A stretch of DNA of 64,000 nucleotides from Schmidtea polychroa (Eukaryota): the NCBI GenBank assembly GCA_044892525.1, contig CM097885.1, forward strand, positions 126,480,001-126,544,000, written 5' to 3'. The number at the start of each line of letters is the position of its first letter. The stretch's first letter is position 1. This document shows positions 10,601-64,000 of the stretch, piece by piece. Both the position numbers and the translations under genes were made by a program. The notes below the pieces were generated by a model. It did not search any database. It saw only the letters and a list, made by a program, of their open reading frames with translations, and was not told the origin of the DNA.

Positions 10601-11305
10601 GACAATAACAATGAAGGCTCACTCATGAGGGAAGAGCTAAGACTGAATTTGGGAAGAAGATAGGGCACGAATAAGCGATCTGACAATAATTGGGTCAACG
10701 AATAAAATAATACTAATAATATTATAATAATTTTAGCATCTAATAAATTTTCCTTTTTTTCCTAGGCGCTAGTGTGATCAGAACCTTCGACTTCACTACA
10801 GGGCTATGGCAGCACACATCTAATGCACAGTGCCAATGTTGCTTGCGACGGGTAATTAGTGATAATAAAACATTATGTGTTGGGTTAGGGTTGGCAAAAA
10901 TTGTTGATTATATAGAAAGTTTTGAACATAAATTTCTTTTCACATCCAATTTTTTTGTACTATTTATATATATGTTGGGCTGAGTCGGAAAATCAATTTG
11001 GGAAATTAGGAAAATAAAATAAGCAAGAGGCTAAAGAAAAACAAAATAAAATAAACAAATTACGAATAAAATAGAATAAGATATAAGAAAAACAATAATT
11101 AGGAAATAAGAATTAAAACAAAAATAAAAATAGAAAATTAAAATAGGACAATAGAAGAACGGATAAAATAACGTAAAATTCAATAAATAATAAGGAAATT
11201 AAAGAAATAAATAGAAAATATAATAAAAATAAAGAAAATAGGAAGAAATAACCAAAAACAAGAAAAATAAATTAAAGCAACAAAATTAAGCGGTACTCAA
11301 TTCTG

Positions 11306-11339
11306 ATTGGTCCGCACACACAGAAAATTAATATATAAA
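11306..11339 (+). promoter_or_regulatory. Candidate Pol II promoter (reverse CCAAT plus TATA) upstream of element A
   Basis: ATTGG at 11306-11310 and TATATAAA at 11332-11339, upstream of a GTAAGC donor-like site at 11568. Motif match only. Confidence 0.3.
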
Positions 11340-11361
11340 CACGCACAAAAATCATAAAATT

Positions 11362-11430
11362 ACTGTTAATCTAAACATTCTACAGGTAAGAGTACTTCTA
11401 AATAAGACTGTTAATCTAAACATTCTACAG
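11362..11430 (+). repeat. 24-nt perfect direct repeat enclosing a 45-nt GT..AG segment
   Basis: ACTGTTAATCTAAACATTCTACAG at 11362-11385 and 11407-11430; 11386-11430 begins GTAAG and ends CAG. Confidence 0.85.
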
Positions 11431-11778
11431 ACCTACAATAACCGACAAGGATAATCAACAATCAAAATCATTTTCTAGGAGCATTCAGAGATCGAAATCG
11501 AGACAACTAATTACCGAGAAAGTACCGAATCTATTTCCGACTCAGCCGACAACACTACAAGCATTACGTAAGCAGATTTTTGTTTGAAAGTAATAGTAAT
11601 CATGAGATGTTCGTAAAAGTAAAATTAAATGAATTATGATTTTTCTTTTCGGTTGATCCCTATAAATATTTTTCTATGATTTTAATGATTAAATAAATGT
11701 TTTAATGATAAATGCGTTGTTTTAGATATATTTATGAATTAGTCGGAAAGTCTATAATTTTATGATTGTGCATTTTAT

Positions 11779-11915
11779 GAGAAACGTGGAGTTGAGACGT
11801 TTCATGTCATGGTGTGAGGGGCCTTCGGGAGCTCAGCGGCGGACATGAAACGTTTCAATCACGCAGCTGACTTGGGCCGAAAAGTGGGGCTTCCTCACGG
11901 GTCCGTCGCTGAAGG
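11779..11915 (+). ncRNA. Conserved structured RNA module (5' module of element A), family unknown
   Basis: 17-bp helix 11792-11808/11842-11858, inner CC(UUCG)GG hairpin, and a 30-nt block 11886-11915 identical in copy B; copy B shows compensatory changes in the long helix. Confidence 0.7.
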
Positions 11916-13292
11916 TTCCTAACTTAGTTGAAACAGTGGACCATAGTTATGTGAGAGATTTCAATTAGAAAATTTAGCTACGTTCATGATTCACAGTGAT
12001 TGAGGCGGCCACCACCAATTTTTCGTATCTGGAAAACTGTTATCCACCATAAGTCTGATTTTTAGCGCTAGTTCAGGCGACCGTAATCTAGAAATTCAAG
12101 TTCTTCAACCCTCATCACATCTTGAGATTCAACCATCTACTCGATTTTTCCGAAAGAATCATCTTAATTCGAGCATTTTACTCCAATACCTGATAATTAG
12201 CTGATAGGGTAGTATGAACAATTCATAAGAAAAAATCAAAACACAAAACTTCCAATGTAACAACACTTTATTTTTGAAAACGCTAGTTAACCAAAATATA
12301 TTTACTTACCAAATATGACCGAAAATTAGCCGTCGGAGCAAGATTCATGGTCGTCTTTTAGATAAGTAGTCCGATTCCCTGTCGTAGAATATATCCAACC
12401 TTAGAGAAAGCCCCGCAGTCATAAATCCAAATTCTGCAGGCGAAAGCGAGTAAACGGAGATGAACTGACAAACACATAATGTTTCAGATATTGTCACCCG
12501 GTAGAATCTCATCCAACTACCCATGTGTGAATGCGAAATACAATTGATATCGACAGTAGACACAGATAAGCATCCATGAGAATAGCACAGGACTACCAGC
12601 TTATCATGATCAGCGAGAGTATTTGTTGTAATATGTGTGCGACATGAATTATTAGATAGACAGCAGCCGGTGAGTGGAATCGATAACTATCACCGTGCAG
12701 TACACCGAACCGACCAATAAATCACTGACTTTTATCATGGTGCGAAAGTGTCTCGTGACACTGATAATGAGTAACAAATTAATCCGCTAGTCGACTTGGG
12801 GGTCAACTTTCTACTGCAAATTATTCTTGTAATGTTCACGTTTTTGACCACAATAATAATAAATAAACTGCCCTGCGTATATTTAGATCCTCGGTACGAA
12901 AGATATTAAATGGGAGAAAGAAATGCCAGTTGGGGAATAATTCGTCTCGACTATGTTAACTATAATAGTCTTGGGTCGAGGTCTAATAATGAATTGAGGG
13001 CTTAAGGGGGAATTCGGTGAGTATTGAATTCATTAATAGTACAATTGCCACCCCGGTCACGGATTTTGCATTTGTCAATACAATCGTGCATAATTATGTA
13101 AATAAAATTATGTAATAAATCTAGCAGTAACGAATTATTTACCTGAGATTGTAAGTTTCTTACTTGTCAGTATGGTCTCTTTATTTTGTTGTAAGTATCA
13201 AATATGAATAAATAATCTGTAGAGTAGAGTGATGTCTTCATAAATGCCGTATATTTGTATATCAATTTTCTTTTCTTTTCTAGCTAATTGTC

Positions 13293-14042
13293 ATGCTACC
13301 GAATAATCGACCAGCATTACGTCCTTGTTTCTCCTGCGCCGATAAAAACTCTATTATCAAGGATCTGCAGGACCAGATCGGTCGATACAAGAAGAAGATC
13401 GACGAGCTGGAAGGCACATGGTTCAGCCCAGTGCAAATGAAGGAGGTTCGAAAGAAATTACATCGCAGTGAGCATTGTCGGGATGCCCTGATTTCTGAGA
13501 GCCGTTCCCAACGGAGCTTGATAAAGGAGCAATCTGAAGCGCTCCACAAAGTATATTTACAAGCAGCAACTACGAGGCAATTAGTCAGTATACCCATTCA
13601 CGAAGCGGACAATGTTTTCCCAATGCATCACGACACCTCGTTTAAGTCGTCACCTCCGGCCAAGAAGTCTTGTCGGGAATGTGTTGAAGCCGACCTCTCC
13701 CCCAGGCATCCAGATATCGTGTTACCCAAAATCAGTAAGGTGCCAATCGCCGGTACCTCTACCTCGGCGGTACCTCCGATTAGTCAGGTGGCACCAAAAC
13801 CCAAGCGACGGCAATTGTCGAGAGCCGATCGCAAGAGAAAACAGCGAGAGCGCGCGGCCGCCAAGCACAACGAACAGCCAGCGGAGAATCCTATTAGTGT
13901 TCAGCACCTTCCGACGACAATTGATCTGACCATTGGGGTCCCAGGGCGAATTATCTCCGCCGCTGGAGTGACCTGGGAGGAAAATGCCTCCGAATTCTTT
14001 GATTTGGAAGAGTTGTTGGCCGACACTGAGTGGGAAAAATGA
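13293..14042 (+). CDS. 249-aa protein of unknown family (CxxC, coiled coil, CxxC, basic NLS-like, acidic-aromatic C terminus)
   Basis: Open 249 codons; ~85% aa identity to the 62150 (-) ORF over residues 11-95, with many synonymous differences; Y-tract-TAG acceptor 9 nt before the ATG; AATAAA at 14164. Confidence 0.85.
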   Translation: MLPNNRPALRPCFSCADKNSIIKDLQDQIGRYKKKIDELEGTWFSPVQMKEVRKKLHRSEHCRDALISESRSQRSLIKEQSEALHKVYLQAATTRQLVSIPIHEADNVFPMHHDTSFKSSPPAKKSCRECVEADLSPRHPDIVLPKISKVPIAGTSTSAVPPISQVAPKPKRRQLSRADRKRKQRERAAAKHNEQPAENPISVQHLPTTIDLTIGVPGRIISAAGVTWEENASEFFDLEELLADTEWEK

Positions 14043-14323
14043 GAACTCTCTGTCCGTTCAACCCGCTTCGAAAGACGAATATCAATGTTTCTTTTCTTAT
14101 TTTCTCATCATTCATGTATAACTGTGCGTTGTAAATTATCTACGTTTTATCCCATTGTGAGGAAATAAATCATGTTTGTTACTAATGTTCTTATTAATTT
14201 TGTAAAGTTTATGACTTAGATTTTAGTCATTCTAATCAATATCAGTAGAAATCTTTACAGGATCTATAAGTATCTTCTAAGTCCTGGTTGTTAGTTTGAA
14301 CGAACGGTCTGATGATATGAGTA

Positions 14324-14590
14324 GACGTAAGTCCTTCTATCGGCAGTCAAGGGAAGGAAGTCGAGGCCTCAGTGAGGAGTAGTCCGAAGGTAGGGGCTCA
14401 CCTGCTTACTGGCGTTTCGCTGACATAGTACATTACCAACGTGAAGCGATTCACGGGTACTATGCTGGAATATAAGTTGTGCGGGGTACCGCTCGGAGTT
14501 ACCAAGGGAATGGATAAAACAGACAAAGTAGACCATCATCTCCTAGGCGAAAAGTCAAATGGTAGAGGTGAGTCCGAGTAGTGCCCCAGC
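14324..14590 (+). ncRNA. Conserved structured RNA module (3' module of element A), family unknown
   Basis: GAC(GUAA)GUC and GUGAA(GCGA)UUCAC GNRA hairpins; CAUAGUAC/GUACUAUG helix is CGUAGCAC/GUGCUAUG in copy B; the first 26 nt are identical in both copies. Confidence 0.65.
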
Positions 14591-15318
14591 ATATACTACC
14601 CAACAATACCAATGGTAATTAGTTACATGTATCATCATGATAAATTTAGATGTGAGTTTTTGTTGTAATTATCAAAATAATGTCATAATTAGAAATTTTA
14701 AACTACCCACTACCAGTACACCACACAAATTGTCCAATTAACTTACATAGTGCCGTTTCATATACATATGAAATAGCGACGAGATACACACTAACCATAT
14801 TAATTGGTGCAAAACCTATGTGAGAACATTTAGCTTCGTTGTAGATTCCACTCGCGTCCATTTTCAACTTCATTCGTGTAAAATACAGTGTAATAGAATA
14901 TATTTTCGTAGAAATTGAATTTCATTTTTTTTCACCAATTCATTTTACCCAGTCAAGTCAAGTAACTAGATAATGGCTTTGGAAATCGTAATGCAAGAAA
15001 AATTATATTTTGAAATATTTTTGATTTAAACTTAAGCCTATAAATAAAAGTATAAAAAGACAGAAATGGAATTAATTTTTAAATGGTAAAATAAAATATA
15101 TAATGAAATAAAACTTACATATTTGATATTTATTAGGAATTCTTATAAATTTATTTTCATGAGTATTTTGAATAAAAAAATTAATTGTTTTGTTTTGATA
15201 TGTTAACATAAATTTTTTAAAGTTTTAATTTTTATATTAAATAACAAATGGCGATTTATTAATATATATTTATTGTAGTCTTTAATTAATTTTATTGTGA
15301 TAAATATTTAGATATTTC

Positions 15319-18300
15319 ATGCCCTGCAAAAGAAGCCGTAGAAGTTCCAGCGTAAGTGATGAAAGTGTATCTATCACAGATTATAATGAAGATTCAATAC
15401 AGTCTGCTTCAAGTAGTATTTCTACAAGGAAAAGGCGCAAGACTATTGATTCTCGTTTAGAAGTAATTTTGAGAAAATTATTTAAATCAAATTAATTTTT
15501 AATTAAAATTAACTCTAAAATAGATTGGCCACTGTCAAGAAATTTTAGATAAATTGAGGAATGCCAAGGCTGAAGATGGTCACTTGATAGCTGATTCATT
15601 TATTAGATTACCGAACAAACGAACAGCATCTGATTATTATGAGATCATCGATACGCCAATTGACATTATCAAAATTCAGTCTCGCATTAAAAACGATGAA
15701 TATGAAAATTTCTTTGATTTTCAGATAGACATTGAACAATTAGTTGAAAATGCTAAAACATATCATTCACCTTCATCACTTGAATATCAAGATTCGATTC
15801 TATTGTGGAATGCATTTGAACAAGAAAAACGAAATATTTCCATAAAAGCTGATGTAAAGGCAGAAAGCAGTAATGATATTATTTCAAAGTAAGTTGAGAA
15901 CATTAATTAATTACTTAGGCGCTGAAGGTCGACCTAGACGTAGTAGAAAACGAATAGCTATATCTATTGATGATGGAATGAGTGATCAAATTTCTCTTAC
16001 AACTTCTGAAGATTCTAGAAATACGTCAGAAATTAGTAGCAACTTTTCCGAAAATCCACTTGAAGCTTATTTTACTTCCATCGTTACTCAAAAAACCGAA
16101 GATGGTAGAGATGTGGTTGGAGCTTTCACTTTTATACCATCAAAGACTGTGAGATTTGCTAATTAAATTAAATTACTTTCATAATAATGTTAAAAAACAG
16201 TTATAGTTATTGAAATTGCATTATTTACTTAAGTTTTTATTCTTATTTTTCCTTGTCATTATAAGAATAATCATTAAAAATTTATTTGTCCATTGATTTA
16301 AATTCTTTTTTTTTCAATGAAAATGGATCAAGAAATTACAATAAATAAATTAATTATTATCATAAAAGTAAGATGGATAAATTTTGGTCAGTAGATTAAA
16401 TATAAATGAAGGTTTATGAAAATTTAATTTTTTAATAATATCAGTGGCTAATTAGTATAATGAATATTTGCATTATTCCTCACACCAAGTTCTGTACCAA
16501 ATAATATTGAATAAATTAATTTATTTATATGAACACCTAGGTTAAGTTAATGAGAAAAAACATGAGAAAAAGTACTGAATTTTAAAAGCCTATAAAAGAT
16601 GAGTTTCTTGAAGCCTGGACAACTTCAATGTTTCAAGAAGGGACTTTTCCTTTTCATATGTCAATAGATTGTTAAAATTAAATCAATTTAAGGTGTTGTC
16701 AGTTAATTAACCCGATTGAAATTTTATAATGAGAAATTATGGTATTACATATGACAAATAATAGCCCGGATTATTTTTATTCATTTTTCGTAACAGGAAC
16801 TGTAAACATAAAACAATTTCATGTCTCATGACAAATTCCATCAAATACCCATTACTGTGGTAAATCTCGACTGACTTGATTCCGTTTCCTTTGCTATTCC
16901 TCAGACACATGTTAAAAATGTTAAAAATTGTCGCGTTATATTCGGGCTAATGCGGTAAATGTAATGATATATTATTGTCTGAAAATGAAGAGAAAGAAAA
17001 TTGAATAATTATATTTTCGCAGTAGTTACTTTTGAAACTTTTAATTTATATAATAATTTTATTAATTTAAAAAATTTGTTGTTTGCTAAATTCAATGTAT
17101 TAAATCAATGATGAGCAACATGTGGCGTAATAAGAAAATATATACAAAAAATAAACTGTTAAATAGTAACATTAGTTGTCAATCTATATATTTATAATAG
17201 ATATGTACAAGTATTTTTGTATTTTTGAAAACGATGTGACTCTGCATTCTTTTTTAAACTGTGGGTTTCCAGAGAACCGTAAATATTAAAACTATGAGTT
17301 AACATGCGCCGACCCACCGAGCTTGATGCGTTAAACAATGAGAGAAATTGAAACACTTATCTCTGTACCTCTTATGGCCATTGAGCAAAACAATCTTTAA
17401 ACCAAGAGAAACATATATGATGTCTAGTTGGTTCTACGTCTACTCTAATTACATTGCATCACCCGATATTCTGAATTAAATCAATACACCTGTTTGCAAT
17501 GAATAAAAGCATCTATTTAGTAACAAAGTAGGTATAATATTATTAAGAGAATGTATATGCGGCTCGAACGAAACAAACCAATTAAATTTCCAAAAAATAT
17601 TTTTTGTAGTTTTTGTCTTTTTAAAATTATGTATAAAATTATATACCAGGCGTATCCACAGTATCAAGAAGTTATAAAGGAACCAATCGATCTTAGAACA
17701 ATAGCAAAACGTATTAAATCAGGCGTTTATTTGAGTATTGACGATATCGAAAGCGATTTACAGTTAATGATAAAAAATGCGAAAATATTCAATGAACCCA
17801 AATCGGAAGTATTTCAAGTAAAAAATTTTTAAACCAAAATGTCAATTTGTACTCAATTGGATTTATGAAATTAGAATGCAGTGGAATTGCAGAAAATATT
17901 GAAAATGAAACGAACCGAAATGGAAACCGGGGTGAAAACTCAGAAAGCAAAACGGTACTAGTGTTAATTCACTAATTTGAAATATGAAAGTAAACTTATC
18001 TAGAGGACGTAAACGGAAGACTCCACTTAATTTGACGGAGAAATATGCAAATATGGAGTCACCAAAAGATAGCGATGAATTTGACAGCGAAGAACCAGAG
18101 GATAGTTTGGAAAATAGTGTTGATTATGACGAAGAGTTGAATATTCCTCCGGCTGATAGTCGATTTCCACAATGGCAGTTGTATAAAACCATTACCGGTA
18201 TTACTCTGAGTAACGGGAACAGCCTATGTGCTCCGTTTATGAAACTGCCATCTAAAAAGTATTTTAATTGGTTAATACAATATGTGATAAAATGAACTAG

Positions 18301-27300: not shown

Positions 27301-30300
27301 CCAAGCATACGGCATACACGCACTGTACCAGTAGCCAAAAAACTTTTTTCATTCAGTGCAACTAATAATTTATGAGATGTGAATCAGTTGTCCATGAACA
27401 CTTTGAAATTTTTATTTGGTTCTAAATTTTCCAACAAGCGAAGAACAATGTGGCCACTTATACCCAAAGTACTCTCAGTTTTTGCGGTTCCTTTTCCAAC
27501 ATAAATTTCGTAGTCATATATGATACCACTTGCCCCTGCACGGGCAAATACTTTGATGCCCCACTTGTGGGGTTTATTCCTTATATATTGTTTCAGAGAG
27601 TTTTTACCTTTGAAAGGTATCAATATTTCGTCAATTGAATTGAATTCTTCAGGTTCAATCTTACCCATATTATACTTCACCTGGTTTAGAAATGGCCTAA
27701 TTTTAAACAATTTGTCGTGGGCTGGATCGATTCTTGCAAGGGCTTTGTTGTTATCATTGAAGTGTAAAAATGTTCTAAGTTTATCGAATCTATTACGAGG
27801 CATAACACTTGCTATTTTGTCATACCTAGTTTCAGCCATCCAATACATCCGATAACTAGGAACTTTTATTATTCCACTAAGTACCTGAATTCCTATAAAT
27901 TGTTCTATTTCATTCGGACTTGTATTAATTGATGTACCTGATTTTTGTACAGAATATAAATTTGTTTGCTCGGCAATGTTGTGTATAATGTCATTGTCAA
28001 TAAACATTTTAAAATACTGATACACTGATTTATCATCGTGTGGTGGATTTGAAAAATTTAAATTAAAATTTGTATCCACCGTATCGATTTCTTTTTTACG
28101 CCATGAACATGGTCGAACAGAATGTGCAGGTACATTTGGAGTAATATTTTCTAGGTCACTTTCACTTTCTTCTTCCTGGTTCGAAATATCTTCTTCGTCG
28201 GAATCGTTACCACTTGTAGTTGGTCGCTGCTCATCTATCGGCTCAGAGAAATGTTGCTGCAATAAGTCCTCTTCTAGATCATCATCTGACATTTCACTAC
28301 CAGAATCCTGAATCATACGATAAGCTTCTTCAGATGTAAGGGTGTTTAGATTTATCCTTTTATTGAAAGACATCTGAAAAAAAATTATTTCAAACGATAA
28401 ATATAAGAACAGAAGCAAATAGGTGAACCTAAATTAAATCTCAGACAAATTCAGGCATTTAGTGAGTAATATAATCTATAAAAACTTAAAGTTTACCAGA
28501 ATTATAGTTCAACATAAGAAGTAGGCCAAGTGCCCAAAGATTCCAATTGGAATCACAAATTCAATAGGTTATAAAATTATTATAAACATATATTTACCTT
28601 TTGTTCTTGCAATATCACAAACACTAAGCTTTTCTTGAAGTAAATCAATTTTTATTTTAGATAAATAATAACGAAACCACTTATAAAACAACACTTTTTC
28701 TTCGATGTGCGCAACATATAGGTTATGTGAGAGCAGGCTTACAAATGTCGTTACTTTTCTGACAGCTGATACAAATTTAGTGAGATAAAAATTGTGCCAA
28801 CTGTTAAAAACATATCTTACTATAGTTCTCACTAGTTACTGCCAACCGTTTTGGTAGTAGAGAGAAAAAAACTGAGTTTTTAACTAATGATTCCATTTGG
28901 AATCACTGGGCTGGAAAGGGTTAATAAATGTACGTTCATTAAATTTCAATTAGGCATCAACTTAAAGCACGTAGAATAATTAAAATTTGTCGAATAACTA
29001 TTTGAGTGCATGATATTTATTATTATTATTTAGTAATGTTTGATTATTATTTTTATTATTTAATTTGATCATTATTTTTAATAATGTTTTATCACTTTAT
29101 TATTTATTATGCTTATTAATTATTATTTTTAAACAATTAAATGATAATTTAAGCTTTTTGCTGCGAAAAATATATTTAATAAAAATGAAAAATTGCAATG
29201 TTTACTTAAGTTTTTATTCCTTTTTTTTCTCTGTCATTATAAGAATAATCATTCAAAATTTAATTTTTTATCTGTCGATTGATTTAAATTCTTTTTTTTC
29301 CACTGAAAATGGATCAAGAAATTACAATAAATAAATTAATTATTACCATAAAAGTAAGATGGATAAATTTTGGTCAGTAGATTAAATATAAATTAAGGTT
29401 TATGAAAATTTAATTAATTGAATTTAATTTTTTAATAATATCAGTGGCTAATTAGTATAATGAATATTTGCATTATTCCTCACACCAAGTTCTGTACCAA
29501 ATAATATTAAATAAATTAATTTATTTATATGAACACCTAGGTTAAGTTAATGAGAAAAAACATGGGAAAAAGTACTGAATTTTAAAAGCCTATAATAGAT
29601 GAGTTTCTTGAAGCCTGGACAACTTCAATGTTTCCAGAAGGGATATTTCCTTCTCATATGTCAATAGATCGTTAAAATTAAATCAATTTAAGGTGTTTGT
29701 CAGTTAATTAACCCGATTGAAATTTTATAATGAGAAATTATGGTATTACATATGACAAATAATAGCCCGGATTATTTTTATTCATTTTTCGTAACAGGAA
29801 CTGTAAACATAAAACAATTTCATGTCTCATGACAAATTCCATCAAATACCCATTACTGTGGTAAATCTCGACTGACTTTATATTAGTATTTTTTTAATTT
29901 AAAATGATCATTTTTTTAAAATAATGTTTTATTACTATTTATAATCTATTATTTATTATTATTATTATTATTTCTTGGTAGCATCATAAATTAATAGTTC
30001 AACAAGTAAATGATAAAATAATATTTTCAGTATATTATTTTATTCTTTATTTTATTCGTTGACTCAAATTAAATTGACTTATCACGATTACTTATTTTAC
30101 ATTTTTAAGAACTGGTTGAAATTGCAAATAATATTAGATAAAAATAACATATTAAATATTTGGCAATGAAATCTCAATCATAGTAAATGTATAAGATTTT
30201 AATAAAAATGATCACCTTGATATAAAAAATGTTTATACACTTAGTAGACAATGCATAAATTTGTTGAAACCGATTTGTGAAAGTATTGAAATTTTACTAA

Positions 30301-34512: not shown

Positions 34513-36499
34513 AACATACTTTTTTAATTTATTATTTGTACTTTTAATATAAATATATGTGCACTTTTGTATTGATATTTATTTAATATTTTAATAAAAT
34601 ATATCAATTTGTACTTTTATTTGTATTCGCGTTTTGTTGTATAATTTATTTGCTTGTTATTTTAGTAATATATTTAAATATCTTCATAATGTAATGAGAA
34701 TGTTATTGTTAACCGATTAAATGGAATTAGTGAACAACACTTTAATTATTCACATTATACAACGGTTTAGAAATTATTTCTAATAATATAAAATTAGAAG
34801 AATAAAAATTTTTAATGCTTATATGACGCTATTTTTATTTAAATTAAAAAGCCAATATTAATATTTGTATGTATGATATACGGAACCAGTATATCAAATC
34901 GAATCAACACCAATGAAACCGCCTAAAGATACATAAATTTGGCTGGAGAAGGCAAGATTCTAACAATATTGAAAAACAAGACACTAATAACGAGTCGCAG
35001 ATTGGCAAAGAATGTCAAAGTAGAATGTGCCTTCGGCATAAAAGCTAGTCTAAAAAAGACATCCTTCAAAGAAATCAAGACAAACTAATTCGCCAAAATC
35101 TGAGATCATATAGAGAATAATTGGGATTTGTTAATCAAGCAAAAGCCAACAGAAATAAAAGAGTGTATGAGCAATCTCCAAGATAATGCGATTTGGTAAC
35201 TAAAACCATCAGATTAATTAGACGATACGGGAGATTGATGATGAAAGGGCAGATCTCAAAATCACTATACGATTACCTAGTAAGGAACAAGAAATCCTGA
35301 CAAATAAATGAACTAATAACAATGATAAACGAGACAATAATAGAAGAAGCCCGAGCAAATAGCAAAGATGAAATAATAGATCTGGTCATGATATATAATA
35401 AACATATCTTACAATTGGATAACGACACCTTAAGCGAATTAGGTATATGGGATGATGAACAAACGATAAAAATCATGCTGATGGATGAGCCATTGACCAA
35501 AAAATACTCTTAACATAAAGATGTTTGATATATTGTGGTTTATTAGTGGTTGATTTCCCGACTGGATCTTGTACATCAGAAATGGAAAATGGAATGGATA
35601 TAAAGATCAAATAACTAATATTGCAGGATGACAATAAATTTGAAAAATTTGAGATGAATAGAAACAAATGTAAACAGAAATCAAATCTAGTAGCAAGCTG
35701 TAGAAAATGAAGCGTCAAGGAGAAATCACCGGAGCAGATAAGGAGGAAAGCAGTAAGAATCATTACAGTATTAAAACAAAATATTATTATAATTTATTAA
35801 TATTCTTACAAATATTTTCTAAATGATAGTGATAAAGTTTACATTTTATTCTCTGAGTTTTTCAGATCTATGGAATTTATGCTCGTTGGATGGTTATTTT
35901 ATTTTTTATGTGTAATTTTTATGAGTTCCTACAACTAATCTCGCGAGATGTGGCTTTGGTTTCCGGTTTTTTTATTATTTATTGGTTTCTTTATGATCTT
36001 TTTGAAAATATGGCGTCCTAACAGTATAGTTAGCAAATATCCTGTCTAGGGAAGTTCGACTTTAGAATTTCACTCTCAGTAAATGATCACATTTTTTTAC
36101 GAATATACTCACAACGAGAACTATCCCACATACACACTAACAATTACTACAAAAAATTTTCGAAACGAAAAAAAGAGTAGATCCTTGCTCAAATTTATGA
36201 AATTGACGGTAATTAACATCAATTAAGGAGGACCATAATTAAGAATGAACAAATAGCGAAAAAATGAATGCGTAATAATAAATCAACGTAAGACCTTCTA
36301 CAGGCAGCTATGAACCCGAAAATGAGAGTGCAATAAGCAGTTATATCAGTGGAGCTCATCTGCTCATTGATTTTCAACCTCTGTGTATATTACCACCATA
36401 GTTTCTGCCATGGATACACGGATGCCAAAAGTAAAATAGTCATGAAGGCGTTTAACGAATAATCGACGATAAATCTAACAGTTACCCTAGAGAAGTAAA

Positions 36500-46800: not shown

Positions 46801-49800
46801 AATTTAGTTCTATCTACAAACATTAAAATATTATAAGAACTTCTTACAAAACATTTAAATGTCCCAACAAATATAATATACAAATATTTTTGCTTATAAG
46901 TTGTCAGTATCATTTATTTACATAGTTTCTTGTCATGTCTGATTGATTGCCGATAAAAATCCTGAATATAAAACTCAAATATATTGATTAAAATATATTG
47001 ATTAAAATAAGTATTTTACGTGTTACTTAATTTTAGAGATATGTAATTCTCGACTTTATTTCGTTCTCGAGAAATCGAGTTTAATTTACTGTTCTCCAGA
47101 ATTCTCAAGAAAACAAACTTTACAAAAAAACCATTTTTTTATTTTATAAATTCATTATTAATTGATTACTATCAAAAATGTAAAAAACGATTTTTTTTTA
47201 ATGATATCAAACCAGTGTAAAAACGATTTATTTTTAATGATATCAAAACGATGTAAAAAATGATGTAAAATACGATTTATTTTTTAATGATATCAAAACG
47301 ATGTAAAAAACGATTTGTTTTATAATGATTTAAAAACGATGTAAAAAACGATTTATATTTTAATGATTTAAAAACGATGTAAAAACGATTTATATTTTAA
47401 TGATTTAAAAACAATGTAAAAGACGATTTGTTTTATAATGATTTAAAAACGATGTCAAAATCGATTTACATTTTAATGATTTAAAAACGATGTAAGAAAC
47501 GATTTACATTTTAATGATATTAAATCAATGTAAAAAACGATGTATTTTTCAATGATTTAAAAACGATGTAAAAATCGATTTACATTTAAATGGTTTAAAA
47601 ACGATGTAAGAAACGATTTATCGTATAATGATATCGAACCGATGTAAAAAACGATGTATTTTTTAATGATATCAAACCAATGTAAAAAACGATGTATTTT
47701 TTAATGATATCAAACCAATGTAAGAAACGATGTATTTTTTAATGATTTAAAAACGATGTAAAAGACGATTTATTTTATAATGATTTAAAAGTGATCTAAA
47801 AAACGATTTACATTTTAATGATATTAAACCAATGTAAAAAACGACCGGTGATAATCTACCAATTTTAGCATTACGCTAGCTCCATCGCCTGTTATTGCCA
47901 CAATATCTTTTGCCCCAAACACCTTGAGTTTATCTTCAACCATTTGTAATAATATATTTGTAAATAATAAGTAAGTAAATAATAAGTAATAATATATTTG
48001 TAATAACTACCAATAATTCTAACTAAGCCTAGGTTGTCAGAATCTCCACTATAATAAATATGGATACTCAAATATCCACGTTTTCCTAGCACTTGTTCAT
48101 TTTTCAATAGACATACTAGTTTTCTTGTTCTGCAATTTTATTTTAATGATGGTATCGGCTTTAATTTCTTCACAAAATTAGCTAATTAGTTTCATTATAT
48201 CCATCTTTGGCGGCCAGTTTAATAACAATTTCCTTTAAATTTGGACGAGTGATACGAAAGAGTTTATCAATGTTCGACGTTGTTACTTTTAATCCGGTTT
48301 ATGATGCAGTTTTTCCTCGATTTAATTGGTTTTCCTTTACTGTTCGACTCATTGAATGTAAATTTTCATAATTTCAATGCAAACATGTAGAAGAGTTTTT
48401 TCATGACATTTGTTTGCAGCAAATATTGCACGTCGCTGTATCCTTGTTTTCCTCTTTAAAATACTTCCAACAATCGCTATAGTTGTTGTTCATTTTAAGA
48501 GTCTAAAAATATATTTCTATTAAATAATTGAAATCGACCTTAGAAAACACCATAAAGAAAACTGCATTAATACGATAGTAGACAACGTTAGAAAATTTTT
48601 ACTTATGTAATTAATTGATTATTAATTTATTTAAACAAAAAACATGTCAAAATTCATAATTATTAATGCGTTAAGTGAGAAAATAATGTTATTCTTTAAA
48701 TTCTCGAGAATCGAGAAAAAATATTGGTCGAGAATTCTCGAGAATAATCTTTACTTTATTTCTGTTTACGTTTTTCCCAAAAATATTAGATTACATGGAA
48801 ACTTCTTGTTTTAATAATGTTGAGGTTGTCAGTGAAATGTGAACTACACGTTTACCTCGGTAATACGGTGGGTATGATTCCAGACCATCGGCGCAATGCG
48901 AGTCACTTGCTTTTTTTCACTCGCTACAACATATAAACACCTTAAAACTTGTTTACACTATCATTTATTATTTGTGCTATAGCGCTAGGCTAAAAATAAC
49001 AGCTAAAAACTTTATTAATATCATTGAAGGAAGGTTGAGACTCATCATCTGACCCTTCAACGAATCTAATTATCTTGCTTGGTGGAGAGTCTACCATTGA
49101 TGTTGATGATTGATGAGGTGATATTGGCTGTTGAATGATAGGATTTGAAGGTGCGGGTTGTTGCGGCACTGGCTTAAAGTAAGATGTCTATGACGTTTGC
49201 TTCATTCAGCATCTCTTTCTCTCAAGGAATTCCAGTGTAGCTAGTGATGTCGTTTAGCAATTTTTCCCAACTTTCGAATTTCTCTTAATATAAATGCGTA
49301 ATAACACAATTGTAACACTATTAAATTTTGCGGTCAAATGGAGAGTGATGCGCGTGTTATGAATGCTGCATTCAAACTGAACTCCGCGTGGAAAATTTGT
49401 TGATTAAAAGCTGTACAGTGCATGGTTGCTGTAAGAACAAGACAAGCGCCGTAAAACGATTCATACCTATATACAATTATACAATTACTTATCTAACTCC
49501 GACTATATAAAATTCTAGACTATATAAACTTTTATTGATCAGAACAATTGATTACAAATTAACAACAGTACAAAATAATTCAATGCTGCAACAGTGGTTA
49601 TTGAGTGCTTATTACAACCTTCCGAGAGGAATAGCACTATTATTTATGATTTAGAATTTATGACCACCTAGTTACTACTTTTGGTTTCGATATTCAGCAG
49701 AGTCGATCTGAATTTGCAATAATTTTTTTTTGATTTCCTTTTTATAAGTGTCGTTTAATTCAAATTGTGTTTCGCTTTCATACTCTATTATTCAACGACA

Positions 49801-60336: not shown

Positions 60337-60854
60337 TTATTGTTTTTATTTTAATATAATTTTCGGTGATTTTTGAAATTAATTATTAGTATTCATAAAA
60401 TTTTCGTAATAATATCTATAACTTGACATTTACTGACAACGGTTTCTTATTGGTTAATAATAATGATAATACTATAATTTTTCTTGATAAAAAAGTCTAA
60501 ATATCAAATGGTTTGTAATCAACATAATATAAACTGGCTATTTTCTTAAAAGATCAAAGAAACGGTATTTTATTTGAGAGATTGAGTACAGAAAATAAAT
60601 TCTACTCAAAAATTGTGGTCCAAAAATAGATATCGGAATATATTGCTTATACATAGGTATTTTTATTCATTTTTACTAAAAAGCAACTAAACGAAATTTT
60701 TGTACAATTGTACTTTAATACAATTTAGCTATACAGTAGATAAAACATGCAAAATGAGTATGAAAGATGTTTTTGAGGCATTAGGGTAGCTCCTCCAATG
60801 TTTAGCAAACAAATGATGCGAGAATTGCATTTGTTCCTCGTGTTGGCGGGTGAC

Positions 60855-61114
60855 TACCCGGATGACCCCCTTCATTACCGCTTTCAGTCCAGAGGATGAA
60901 TGCCCCATATCGATTACGCTCGTCTTGATTCTGGTCATTGCCGAGCAGGACCCGTACATAATCTACCCTCCAACATAGCACCCGTGAATCGCTTCACGTT
61001 GGAACTGTGCTACGCCGGCGAGACGCCAGTAGGCAGGTGAGCCATCTCCTTCGGACTACTCCCTACTGAAGCCTCGACTTCCTAACCCTGACTGCCGATA
61101 GAAGGACTTACGTC
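60855..61114 (-). ncRNA. 3' structured RNA module, copy B
   Basis: Reverse complement aligns to 14324-14590 with the hairpins preserved. Confidence 0.65.
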
Positions 61115-61406
61115 ATTTCATTTTGTCACCCATCGCAAGATTTCTAGCTGGAATTACCAATTGACCAATATTCCTCATTTTTCCGAAAAACTCTCAATGC
61201 TATTTACAAGTTCATATTATTTTCTAAGTTCAACACACAAGATAACGCATACATAAACGAAAAACTTTTATTATTAAATTTACTACACAAACACCTAGAG
61301 GATTTATACAAGGAATTTTACACGAACTGAATAACACCAAGGTAGAAAACGACAACAGAAAAGTTCGATCCGCTACGGAGAAGGAGGCCATTCTCCGGGG
61401 AAATCC

Positions 61407-62150
61407 TCATCTCTCCCACTCCGAGTCGGCGAGTAACTCGTCCAGATTAAAGAACTCGGCGGCGTTTTCCTCCCACATCGCCCCGGCGGCGGAGATAACT
61501 CGCCCGGAGATCCCGGTTGTTGGGACGACCACCGTTAGATCACTATTGTTGCTGACTGGAGCGATGATTGACGATGTACACTACTTGACAGACGCCCGTT
61601 CCCGTTGTTTCCGTTTGCGTTCGGCCCGAGACAGCTGTCGACGCTTAGGCTTTGAGGAGGTGATCGTTTGTATGGTTGATGAGGACGTGAGATTTAGCTG
61701 GACCTTACTGGTTCCGGTGAATACAATCTCTGGGTCTTTAGGAGAGAGCTCGGATTCTACACATCCATGGCAAGACTTCGCGAGTGGAGACGAAAACTTG
61801 ACAGAAGTATCATGGTGCGCTGGGAAGAGATTGCCGGCTTCGTCAATTGGGATCTTCGCTATTTTTCTAGTGGTCGCCGCTTGTATGTATAGTTTATGCA
61901 GTGCTTCCGACTGCTCTTTTATCAGGCTCCTCTGTGCTCGACTTTCGGAAATGAGAGCATCACGACAGTGCTCGCTTCGATACAATTTCTTTTGGGTCTC
62001 CTTCATTTGCGTGGGACTAAACCATGTCCCCTCCAACTCATCGATCTTCCTTTTGTACTTTCCAATTTGCGCTTGTAGATCCCTGATAACTGAATTCTTG
62101 TCCGAGCAAGAAAAGCAAGGTTTAAGAATGTTGTTGGTACTTGAAGACAT
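61407..62150 (-). CDS. Paralog of the 13293 ORF; 189 aa to an in-frame TAG, 247 codons if read through
   Basis: TAG at 61581-61583; the same frame continues to ..SGRVISAAGAMWEENAAEFFNLDELLADSEWER* (TGA 61407-61409), matching the C terminus of copy A. Confidence 0.8.
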
Positions 62151-63695
62151 CTTGAATAGCTATGAAGAGGAAATGCGAATAAAATCAAACTAAGTCAAAT
62201 GTGAGACATCATCATCTAGTCACACTCATACCATACTGATCATAGATTATCATACTGACAAAACGAGTTTATTAGCCTGAAGAGATTTCGTTACCCTACA
62301 GATCTTGTACGCTTGGGGTCATTATTTATACGAGAGTGGATCATTCATGCAAGATTTTACCGAAGGAAAGTAAGGTATTATCCTGGATAAGGGAAATTAC
62401 AGGTTGATGAAATTACAATTTAATCAATTTACCTGAAAACAGTACCTAACATTTAAAGAGAGTTTAAATTAAATTATAGATTTACCCCAAGACAAATAAT
62501 TTGGATGTGTAGATCTTATGCATGGATAGGCGATTTATCTTTAAATTAATTATTCAACATAAATAAGACTCTATCAATTGCTCTGCAATTATTTGTTTGC
62601 GATAAGTAAAAGTTTGTTAATTAATTTGCACTTGTTTAGTTGTGAGAAAATCAAAATGATTAAAACAAAGTTGAATATTTAAATGAATTTAACCACGTGT
62701 ACCCAAAATGTCTGTCTGGCCGCTATCTATCATTTCTGATCGGTGAGAAAATCGGGTGACTGTCAGTAGTATGTTTCAGTGAATTATGTTTCAGCTGACG
62801 CGTCAGGTTGGATTTCCTGTGATTAACAGTCTGTATAATCTACATATTGCGAGTAGCCTCTGTGATTATTCTAAAGCGCATGGCGCATGAAAATTTTCTC
62901 TCACCTACTTCTACTTAGTCATAATCGCTGACTGATGTCTTCATGCTCTATGCCATGCCGGTGTATGCATGCAGGTGTATTTTCCCTTATGACATATTAC
63001 ATCACTGACGAACCATGTATCTACCTCAAATGCTGCTGGTTATCTCTCATGGATATTTTGGAAAAACCGGATTTCTACATCATCAATGTTGGAATTAATT
63101 CACGATCCCTCAAATAGGATTTACTAGCTCGTCTCGTGGTCCTCCATCGCTATCAATGTACGCCTGCTACTGCTGTCAAATTGGAGATTTATTACTTATC
63201 CCAATGCTGGATTTTCCACCCGACGGGATGTGGACATTTTATGGTTTACTGGGTAAACAATTATTCTAATAAATTATGTTTTAGGGAAATACATTTTTAC
63301 TGATTGGAGTTATTCGCTTTTATTTTTAATGATTACTTAAACCTATTTAATTACGTGATTTCATACAATTTCATCTTTGAGAGGACATATAGCCGATGGG
63401 AATAGCGATTTCGCAAAAATCGTTAGTCGAAAATTTCAAGATTAAATTTCTAGCGAATTCGAGAACTATGACAACTATGGCATACATAGCACTACCAAGG
63501 TTGGACGGTTTTTTAACGAAAGACTTGCCTAGATCTACTGGATGATAAAGAAGAATTTTAACTTGATCAGACGCTGTTATAATACGCTAGTGCGACACCC
63601 TCAATCACTGCGCGAACATATCAAAATTTCTCCTATTGATCGATTCATTCTCCTATCCTACTTCCTCGTATGAATTTTCATAGAATTTAGTCACT

Positions 63696-63835
63696 CCTTC
63701 AGCGACGGACCCGTGAGGAAGCCCCCACATTACGGCCCGAATCAGCTGCGTGATTGAAAAGACCCCATGTCCACCGGCTGAGCTCCCGAAGGCACCTCAC
63801 ACCATGACATAGAGTATCTCAACACCACGTTTCTC
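63696..63835 (-). ncRNA. 5' structured RNA module, copy B
   Basis: Reverse complement aligns to 11779-11915; identical 30-nt block; long helix kept by compensatory changes. Confidence 0.7.
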
Positions 63836-64000
63836 CAAAATTTTAAATATCATAAAATCAACAAATAGTAAAAATTCCTTTCATTCAAATAAAATATTTA
63901 TTACCAATTTACTAAAACATTTAATTAAGTAAAACCTTCAAATCAAACGAAAAGAGAAAAATGATTATTAAATTTAGACTACTATAAATTCATAAATATA

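Follow-up and report, generated by a model that had tools for sequence, protein, structure and literature searches.

A conserved RNA fold at the LTR ends of Burro-like giant retrotransposons, predicted to hold the primer tRNA-Pro at a second site

Abstract

Following up an RNA feature predicted in a 64-kb window (the whole stretch of DNA under analysis), we found that the flagged module forms the end of an LTR of a Burro-like giant gypsy element, where it is probably a folded U5 portion of the RNA 5' leader that would help to start reverse transcription by gripping the primer tRNA at a second site. The original prediction of a replication or RT-recognition signal is supported by this LTR-end position adjoining a primer-binding site (PBS) for tRNA-Pro, by the retention of the module in an RT-less partner element, and by additional complements to arms of the primer tRNA. 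The helices of the module are conserved between divergent Burro families, both autonomous and non-autonomous, and a covariance model of 160 nt identifies their LTR ends.

The module is also the first cis-acting candidate for how replication begins in these giant env-bearing elements.

Background

The value of extra contacts between the primer tRNA and its template is still debated for HIV-1 and Ty1, a debate that persists because the evidence comes from a few mutants. In the elements described here, thousands of natural copies would record selection on primer contact, with changes clustering where G-U pairing with an unchanging tRNA tolerates them. Burro/GYPSM1 are giant gypsy-like LTR retrotransposons of planarians, of ~30 kb (PMC6431247), and Burro expression after PIWI loss is described in planarians in an excerpt of PMC8532177. 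The Burro section of PMC6431247 is silent on LTR RNA structure, PBS, LTR-encoded open reading frames (ORFs) and non-autonomous partners.

Host element and solo LTRs of the window

The flagged module (14324-14591) corresponds to the final ~270 bases of a plus-strand solo LTR of 3,619 bp (10973-14591), which has TG...CA ends, belongs to a Burro-like giant gypsy element and is bounded by a TATA target-site duplication (10969-10972 and 14592-14595). Such duplications, of 4 bp, were found around 10 of 11 other LTR copies with both ends, the eleventh running on into a PBS; LTR copies start with TGTTGGG and share the same CA end, beyond which their flanks are unrelated. The window carries a second solo LTR (copy B) on the minus strand, with its module at 60841-61118 and its segment complementary to the tRNA D arm (the D-arm box, see below) at 60887-60901. 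The two LTRs are inverted repeats with a common upstream block, ORF and module. The motifs quoted in the original prediction were recovered in both copies where it had placed them, as was the AATAAA at 14164. Its description of a two-copy feature was too narrow, however: the covariance model finds three module copies within the window, the third being a decayed plus-strand copy from a different LTR family (36281-36440, whose row was itself among those used to build the model), and thousands more lie elsewhere in the genome.

Other features of the window include, on the minus strand, a PiggyBac-type DDE transposase ORF (27384-28433) and a protein kinase ORF (1454-2257), and on the plus strand a bromodomain exon of a neighbouring host gene (15524-15892), all three assigned with Pfam, as well as a 38-bp tandem array (47156-47914) and a direct duplication of roughly 700 bp whose copies (16213-16880 and 29190-29929) are 13 kb apart.

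Genome-wide, the LTR-encoded ORF was found in pairs ~26 kb apart, one of which encloses a frame of 4,732 codons encoding gag, CCHC, viral fusion glycoprotein, protease (PR), RT, RNase H (RH), integrase (IN) and ankyrin domains, with a RING/MATH ORF 3' of this frame in the full-length element examined. The Ty3/gypsy order PR-RT-RH-IN between paired LTRs is present in full-length elements. By size, frame and domain content set against the published description, the host element is Burro-like. Both reach ~30 kb with thousands of copies and one huge frame (roughly 4,800 aa in Burro), and both combine gag, CCHC knuckles, an env-like fusion domain before PR, RT, RH and IN, ankyrin, and a MATH/RING accessory ORF (PMC6431247). 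The host element differs from Burro in that the copy examined has MATH in an ORF of its own, 3' of the long frame, and in that BIR and BCL2 gave no Pfam hit.

In 14 of 17 parsed cases, the LTR end is followed, 6-9 nt 3' of its CA, by a PBS complementary to tRNA-Pro(TGG) over 17-22 nt; in full-length elements this PBS, of about 18 nt, matches the tRNA 3' end. Searches for a PBS at ≤4 nt from the LTR end and for a purine tract before the LTR retrieved no shared flank, and no polypurine tract precedes the 3' LTR in the full-length copies examined, a purine run being present in one other copy. The bases before the 3' LTRs are kept between families even though they form no purine tract. With 6-9 nt also separating PBS and LTR end, these elements may prime their plus strand and process their ends in an unusual way. 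The tRNA-Pro(TGG) genes are arranged in a tandem array with a 475-bp period (G000:C1, about 130.9 Mb), and the tRNA-Pro 3' pattern has 1,555 matches genome-wide.

Genomic distribution and families

A 16-mer of the module core has 3,405 exact matches in the genome (control, 0), and a further genome search returned at least 40 matches among 1,358 candidates. Sixty of the first 100 listed matches of the core 16-mer were retrieved for alignment; the copies sort into the window's family (I), family II and family III, with more divergent copies in the flanks, and 9 of 56 representatives were left out of the representative alignment. When the window LTR is compared with five other LTRs of family I, identity is 85-93% in the core and 65-76% in the ORF, the spacer being not alignable; U3 identities, inflated by A-rich gapped matches, were set aside.

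Family II is non-autonomous, consisting of a 15.6-kb element with a 1.55-kb LTR, the same PBS and an 877-aa gag-like ORF, but no RT. Elements of this family have near-identical LTR pairs, their gag-like ORF lies late in the element, and they contain no pol. Family III includes a 34-kb autonomous element whose pol and gag are respectively 57% and 35% identical to those of family I. A further family III element, of about 21 kb, shows no RT motif in its long ORF. The LTR-end pattern of family III has 2,329 matches, and the same PBS follows in 15 of the first 100 listed.

In four full-length elements, the covariance model gave one match per LTR and none in the internal regions. A three-part module pattern matched 0 stretches in the viral contigs searched; its single metagenome match, located in prokaryotic coding sequence, was discarded as a chance occurrence.

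Fold of the 3' module

The plus strand of the module folds better than its shuffles (z -2.79, 2 of 200), whereas folding of the minus strand is shuffle-like (z -0.42, 66 of 200). Together with conserved G-U pairs, this asymmetry points to a plus-strand RNA. The fold that we propose, given on the plus strand, begins with a P1 domain (14324-14348), in which a GAC/GUC helix surrounds a short inner helix and a conserved pyrimidine-rich loop. It continues with a P3/P4 arm (14363-14418), made of a 13-bp long-range helix, a conserved internal loop and an apical hairpin, and with a P6/P7 arm (14420-14468), made of a 12-bp helix, a conserved 8-nt 5' bulge and a 6-bp hairpin. A terminal stem (14478-14591, arms 14489-14496 and 14574-14581) closes the module at the CA of the LTR.

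Over an alignment of 67 rows, the 42-pair structure has 91.7% of its cells paired and double changes at 28 of 42 pairs, compared with 35-44% paired for slid controls. P3 is 90.0% paired (98.0% within the window's family) with double changes at 11 of 13 pairs; the terminal stem is 86-90% paired, with five same-branch compensations in one 8-bp segment and none in the other two. Since these 67 rows had been selected on an anchor motif, the pair count was repeated on 46 profile-found rows below 90% identity. There, 90.5% of cells were paired, and the covariation for which the original prediction had looked to larger alignments is present (double changes at 24 of 30 pairs), 0 of 500 shuffles reaching the observed values on all five measures. 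Because the helices were traced by eye on the very sequences being scored, the slid control flatters the structure, and counting changes on a tree is fairer: for 50 family I rows, 24 same-branch double changes fall on paired columns and 20 of them keep the pair, against a null with a mean of 8.2 and a maximum of 21 among 2,000. Double changes between families mostly represent a few events inherited by many rows. The fold itself is common to two autonomous families, whose pol is 57% identical, and to their non-autonomous partner. RNAalifold recovered only 19 pairs from the first alignment, without P6, a shortfall that comes from gap placement between families.

The helices proposed at the outset fared unevenly, about half of the hairpins proving wrong. 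GUGAA/UUCAC nested in CAUAGUAC/GUACUAUG holds, with 91.6% and 94.6% of cells paired and double changes at 10 of 13 pairs (67 rows). Its loop is a GNRA in 35 of 40 window-family rows and in 0 of 27 rows of other families, these family labels, like those of the word, box and D-arm placement counts below, being drawn from simple patterns that misplace a few rows. The GAC(GUAA)GUC hairpin did not survive: 38 of 67 rows cannot form its middle pair, and GAC pairs instead with a GUC 20 nt further on in all 67, a long-range helix that is 93.5% paired, with double changes, in the 46-row set not chosen by motif. The GGCG(UCU)CGCY hairpin is only 72.8% paired and its bases belong to long-range helices. 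As the GUAA and GGCG hairpins thus give way to long-range helices, the characterisation as rich in GNRA hairpins is largely wrong. The two GUAGU motifs do stand where they were reported, and in the fold they are helix arms or junctions.

Several candidate features were abandoned. An "invariant loop" was dropped once the exact motif was found in only 67 of 88 anchor-free hits, the first alignment having been selected on that motif. Inspection by eye showed no conservation of a pseudoknot in the 5' module, of helices joining the 5' module to the 3' one, of a palindrome for dimerisation or of a tetraloop receptor, and all four were dropped. The P3/P4 loop (14397-14404) is the complement of the consensus 5' splice site, U1-like on the plus strand and a strong donor on the minus strand, a character that is less marked in family III.

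A catalytic domain had also been proposed. That the 3' module is a ribozyme, alone or with a second structured module located 5' in the LTR (see below), is very improbable in our view. Its multi-helix fold with conserved unpaired bases would suit such a function, the two modules are only about 290 nt apart in family II, and the 5' module recalls by eye what we take to be the P4-P6 layout of a group I intron. But the Rfam scan suggested with the prediction returned no matching family (no gathering-score match in the window, none at E ≤ 1 for the module, and two chance-level hits in the LTR), a hammerhead-like CUGANGA occurs upstream in only 18 of 157 copies, 12 of 49 copies have GAAA 3' of the D-arm box, and the 3' module is retained in family III, which has no 5' module. 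Cleavage in U5 would moreover be expected to remove the R region, which is required for strand transfer in retroviral replication. Likenesses to RNase P, HDV, twister and group II domain V, which were scored by Rfam only, were dropped by eye as not conserved.

Complementarity to the primer tRNA

Duplex folding with the primer tRNA set its D arm on the CAUC segment of the module, defining a D-arm box (14534-14548, plus strand), whose 15 nt are complementary to nt 10-25 of tRNA-Pro if one tRNA base bulges out. Of the CAUC..GAAA..AAUG segment originally singled out, the CAUC part thus gained a meaning as the D-arm complement, but GAAA is present in only 12 of 49 copies and AAUG in 6 of 49. The best D-arm match occupies the same location in nearly all family I rows. 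Opposite tRNA nt 11-23, only 15 of 600 cells are mismatched, the 585 that pair comprising 515 Watson-Crick and 70 wobble pairs; the box ends, opposite nt 10, 24 and 25, are often mismatched. The median score of the box is 15.0 against a shuffled-tRNA mean of 8.7, and 0 of 300 shuffles reach 15.0, in a null computed on every third row (17 of 50).

Variation in the box falls mostly where G-U pairing tolerates it. On the tree, 25 of 36 changes in the box keep pairing, and transitions amount to 3.1 per column opposite G/U and 0.75 opposite A/C, compared with 5.1 in the flanking loop columns. Considering all changes, 36 events in 12 box columns, set against 9.4 per flanking loop column, mean that the box changes a third as often. 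The box is not predicted to be clearly more open than its surroundings, with an unpaired probability of 0.47 versus 0.41 for its domain (44 of 49 rows).

Other families display other contacts. The exact ACCCCTA, a 7-nt complement of the D loop, is found in 30 of 45 family II/other rows (twice in 20 of them) and in 0 of 23 family III rows. GAACCC, complementary to the T arm, is absent from all 49 rows of the window's family; 22 of 23 family III rows and 31 of 45 family II/other rows have it after P1. No tRNA contact is common to all families, and the T-arm match alone is weak, 22 of 500 shuffles reaching it. At the sequence level, complementarity to the primer outside the PBS is kept in evolution for the D-arm box and, more weakly, for the T-arm box.

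These complements could instead be fossils of RT copying into the primer, or chance, with conservation reflecting DNA-level needs or shared descent. The boxes do lie on the PBS strand, as copied tRNA would, and one pol coding site in the 30 kb of the element pairs with the D-arm box about as well as the tRNA does (-17.2 versus -17.4 kcal/mol). Such an explanation is nonetheless extremely improbable, given that changes in the box are three times rarer than in the loop columns beside it and mostly preserve pairing, and that the G-U pairs and folding asymmetry described above point to plus-strand RNA. Capture of tRNA sequence may still be how the boxes originated.

The most conserved part of the module, P1-P7, is not explained by tRNA pairing. 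An alternative that we regard as unlikely but worth serious attention is that Gag/NC reads the module chiefly as a signal for packaging or dimerisation and that the complementarity to the tRNA is secondary. This core is common to every family, including the RT-less partner that bears gag, and its conserved bulges and internal loops would resemble protein-binding sites. However, most packaging signals of retroviruses are found 3' of the PBS, inspection by eye showed no palindrome shared between the families, and the wobble-biased tRNA complement would be left unexplained. A packaging role is compatible with primer docking, and the invariant core may also serve packaging.

Architecture of the LTR outside the 3' module

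A likely promoter is located on the plus strand at 11305-11390, ~330-410 nt into the LTR, with an inverted CCAAT box (11305), a TATA box (11332) and a 5' splice-site motif (11383-11390). The inverted CCAAT (GATTGG) recurs at LTR position 309-367 in 21 of 24 representatives, an AG/GTAAG donor motif lies 3' of the TATA box in 14 of the 20 representatives shown, and a TATA box with a downstream donor-like motif is likewise present in families II and III. From these motifs we infer that R-U5 comprises everything from ~11360 on, namely the 5' module, the ORF, both plus-strand AATAAA motifs (11692-11697, upstream of the 5' module, and 14164-14169) and the 3' module. The first AATAAA is weak evidence on its own because the region is A+T-rich. 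Within the likely R region, 11538-11552 is a 15-nt near-perfect complement of the first 15 bases of the LTR. The read-through RNA originally envisaged fits this layout, but the promoter motifs suggest that the module would be carried in a 5' leader started in the 5' LTR rather than in a 3' tail.

The 5' module (11775-11925, plus strand) is a second conserved structured module (fold z -3.26), common with the non-autonomous family. Its alignment of 29 rows has 31 predicted pairs, 12 of them with double changes, and its profile matches upstream of 29 of 60 sampled 3' modules, with no match in family III. It also occurs in the window at 63695-63838 and terminates in a donor-like motif; it is common to families I and II, a different GC-rich block being found instead in family III, and in most family I copies a 10-nt segment of it repeats part of the PBS exactly. 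In family II LTRs, the interval separating the two modules is occupied by a tandem repeat of three to four units that have a conserved GATCCCTGC core (about 36180 in the window).

The LTR-encoded ORF of ~250 aa (13293-14042, plus strand) is preceded by a splice-acceptor-like AG at 13282-13283 and combines a coiled-coil-like start, an Arg-rich stretch and an acidic end; no homologue was detected at E ≤ 0.001 among proteins of 138-441 aa. Its counterpart in copy B lies at about 61408-62150 on the minus strand, it is open in most of the best 150 of 6,291 candidates, and family III LTRs contain a related ORF plus a second one.

This anatomy raises the alternative that the module governs RNA processing or export, by repressing 5'-LTR polyadenylation or splicing or as a Rev/Rex-like response element for the Arg-rich LTR protein. 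The module does sit 3' of an AATAAA, in an LTR with a donor, an acceptor and two AATAAA motifs. P1 of the window's family includes a donor-like GUAAGU word, the P3/P4 loop is the complement of a consensus donor, and the Arg-rich stretch of the ORF product may liken it to Rev. Against this, the donor-like word is missing in family III, family II keeps the module without the LTR ORF, that ORF has no homologue among the proteins of 138-441 aa, and the module, being present in both LTRs, cannot alone tell the 5' from the 3' LTR. We therefore judge a processing or export role to be distinctly unlikely as the main function, though it is not exclusive of primer docking.

Discussion

We favour a reading in which the module docks the primer. 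Transcription would start near 11360 in the 5' LTR, as its motifs suggest, and read through both AATAAA sites, so that genomic RNA would carry the module in its 5' leader and RNAs terminated at either of these sites would lack it. At the foot of the terminal stem, the PBS would bind the 3' 18 nt of the tRNA, and nt 10-25 of the tRNA would pair with the D-arm box about 45-60 nt upstream of the PBS. In families without the long D-arm box, annealing to the PBS would free a T-arm strand for pairing with the GAACCC linker after P1. P1-P7 is a predicted protein-recognition scaffold, for Gag/NC or RT, that would give RT-less partners access to the machinery of autonomous elements. Solo LTRs, those of the window included, have the module without a PBS, and there it is likely inert.

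A bolder version, speculative and in our opinion doubtful as a whole, would see here a new fold ending a ~3-kb R-U5 leader with its own spliced gene, which would capture and open most of the primer tRNA through interchangeable D- and T-arm boxes that lineages swap, and would license RT-less partners. Its thousands of natural copies would then form a covariation record of how RNA docks the primer in an animal retroelement. The host element and the principle of extra primer contacts are already known. The fold, the long U5 D-arm box, its wobble-biased evolution and the sharing with RT-less elements were not found in the literature searched; the original 2018 Burro description lies outside that coverage and may already mention the PBS or LTR ORFs.

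Comparison with known systems

The Ty1 boxes reportedly pair with the D and T arms of the primer tRNA. The sources compared here are used in excerpt, and in one of them Ty1 contacts tRNAiMet outside the PBS through Box 0, 1 and 2.1 (PMC3592414). The module resembles Ty1 in having primer-complementary segments outside the PBS, within a structured leader; Ty1 differs by its 10-nt PBS and by boxes located downstream, inside GAG, whereas the PBS here is ~18 nt long and the boxes lie upstream, in U5 (PMC3592414). According to the same excerpt, one proposed Ty1 box was not confirmed in particles, which counts against the docking reading (PMC3592414).

In retroviruses, an excerpt of PMC3185550 describes the PAS and A-rich loop of HIV-1 and a U5-T-loop contact in avian sarcoma virus. 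As in these viruses, an 18-nt PBS at the foot of a U5 stem is accompanied here by additional contacts, and the GAACCC of the module would match the freed T-arm strand, as the HIV-1 PAS does (PMC3185550). The viral contacts span 4-8 nt and involve the T arm or anticodon, whereas the main contact here is ~15 nt long and involves the D arm (PMC3185550). Set beside the HIV-1 and avian leaders, the R-U5 of the window element would measure ~3.2 kb. MLV is likewise primed by tRNA-Pro, with no extra contacts described in that excerpt (PMC3185550). An excerpt of PMC4558846 presents the logic of U3-R-U5 and the argument that concerns packaging of non-autonomous elements.

Closest in lineage, Drosophila Gypsy (PMC1635307) and yeast Ty3 (PMC3592414) have two-part primer sites, as excerpted. 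Like the elements described here, both are of the gypsy group and use more than one primer-binding segment (PMC1635307; PMC3592414), but their second sites are located at the 3' end of the genome, whereas that of the module lies in U5, about 50 nt from the PBS (PMC1635307; PMC3592414).
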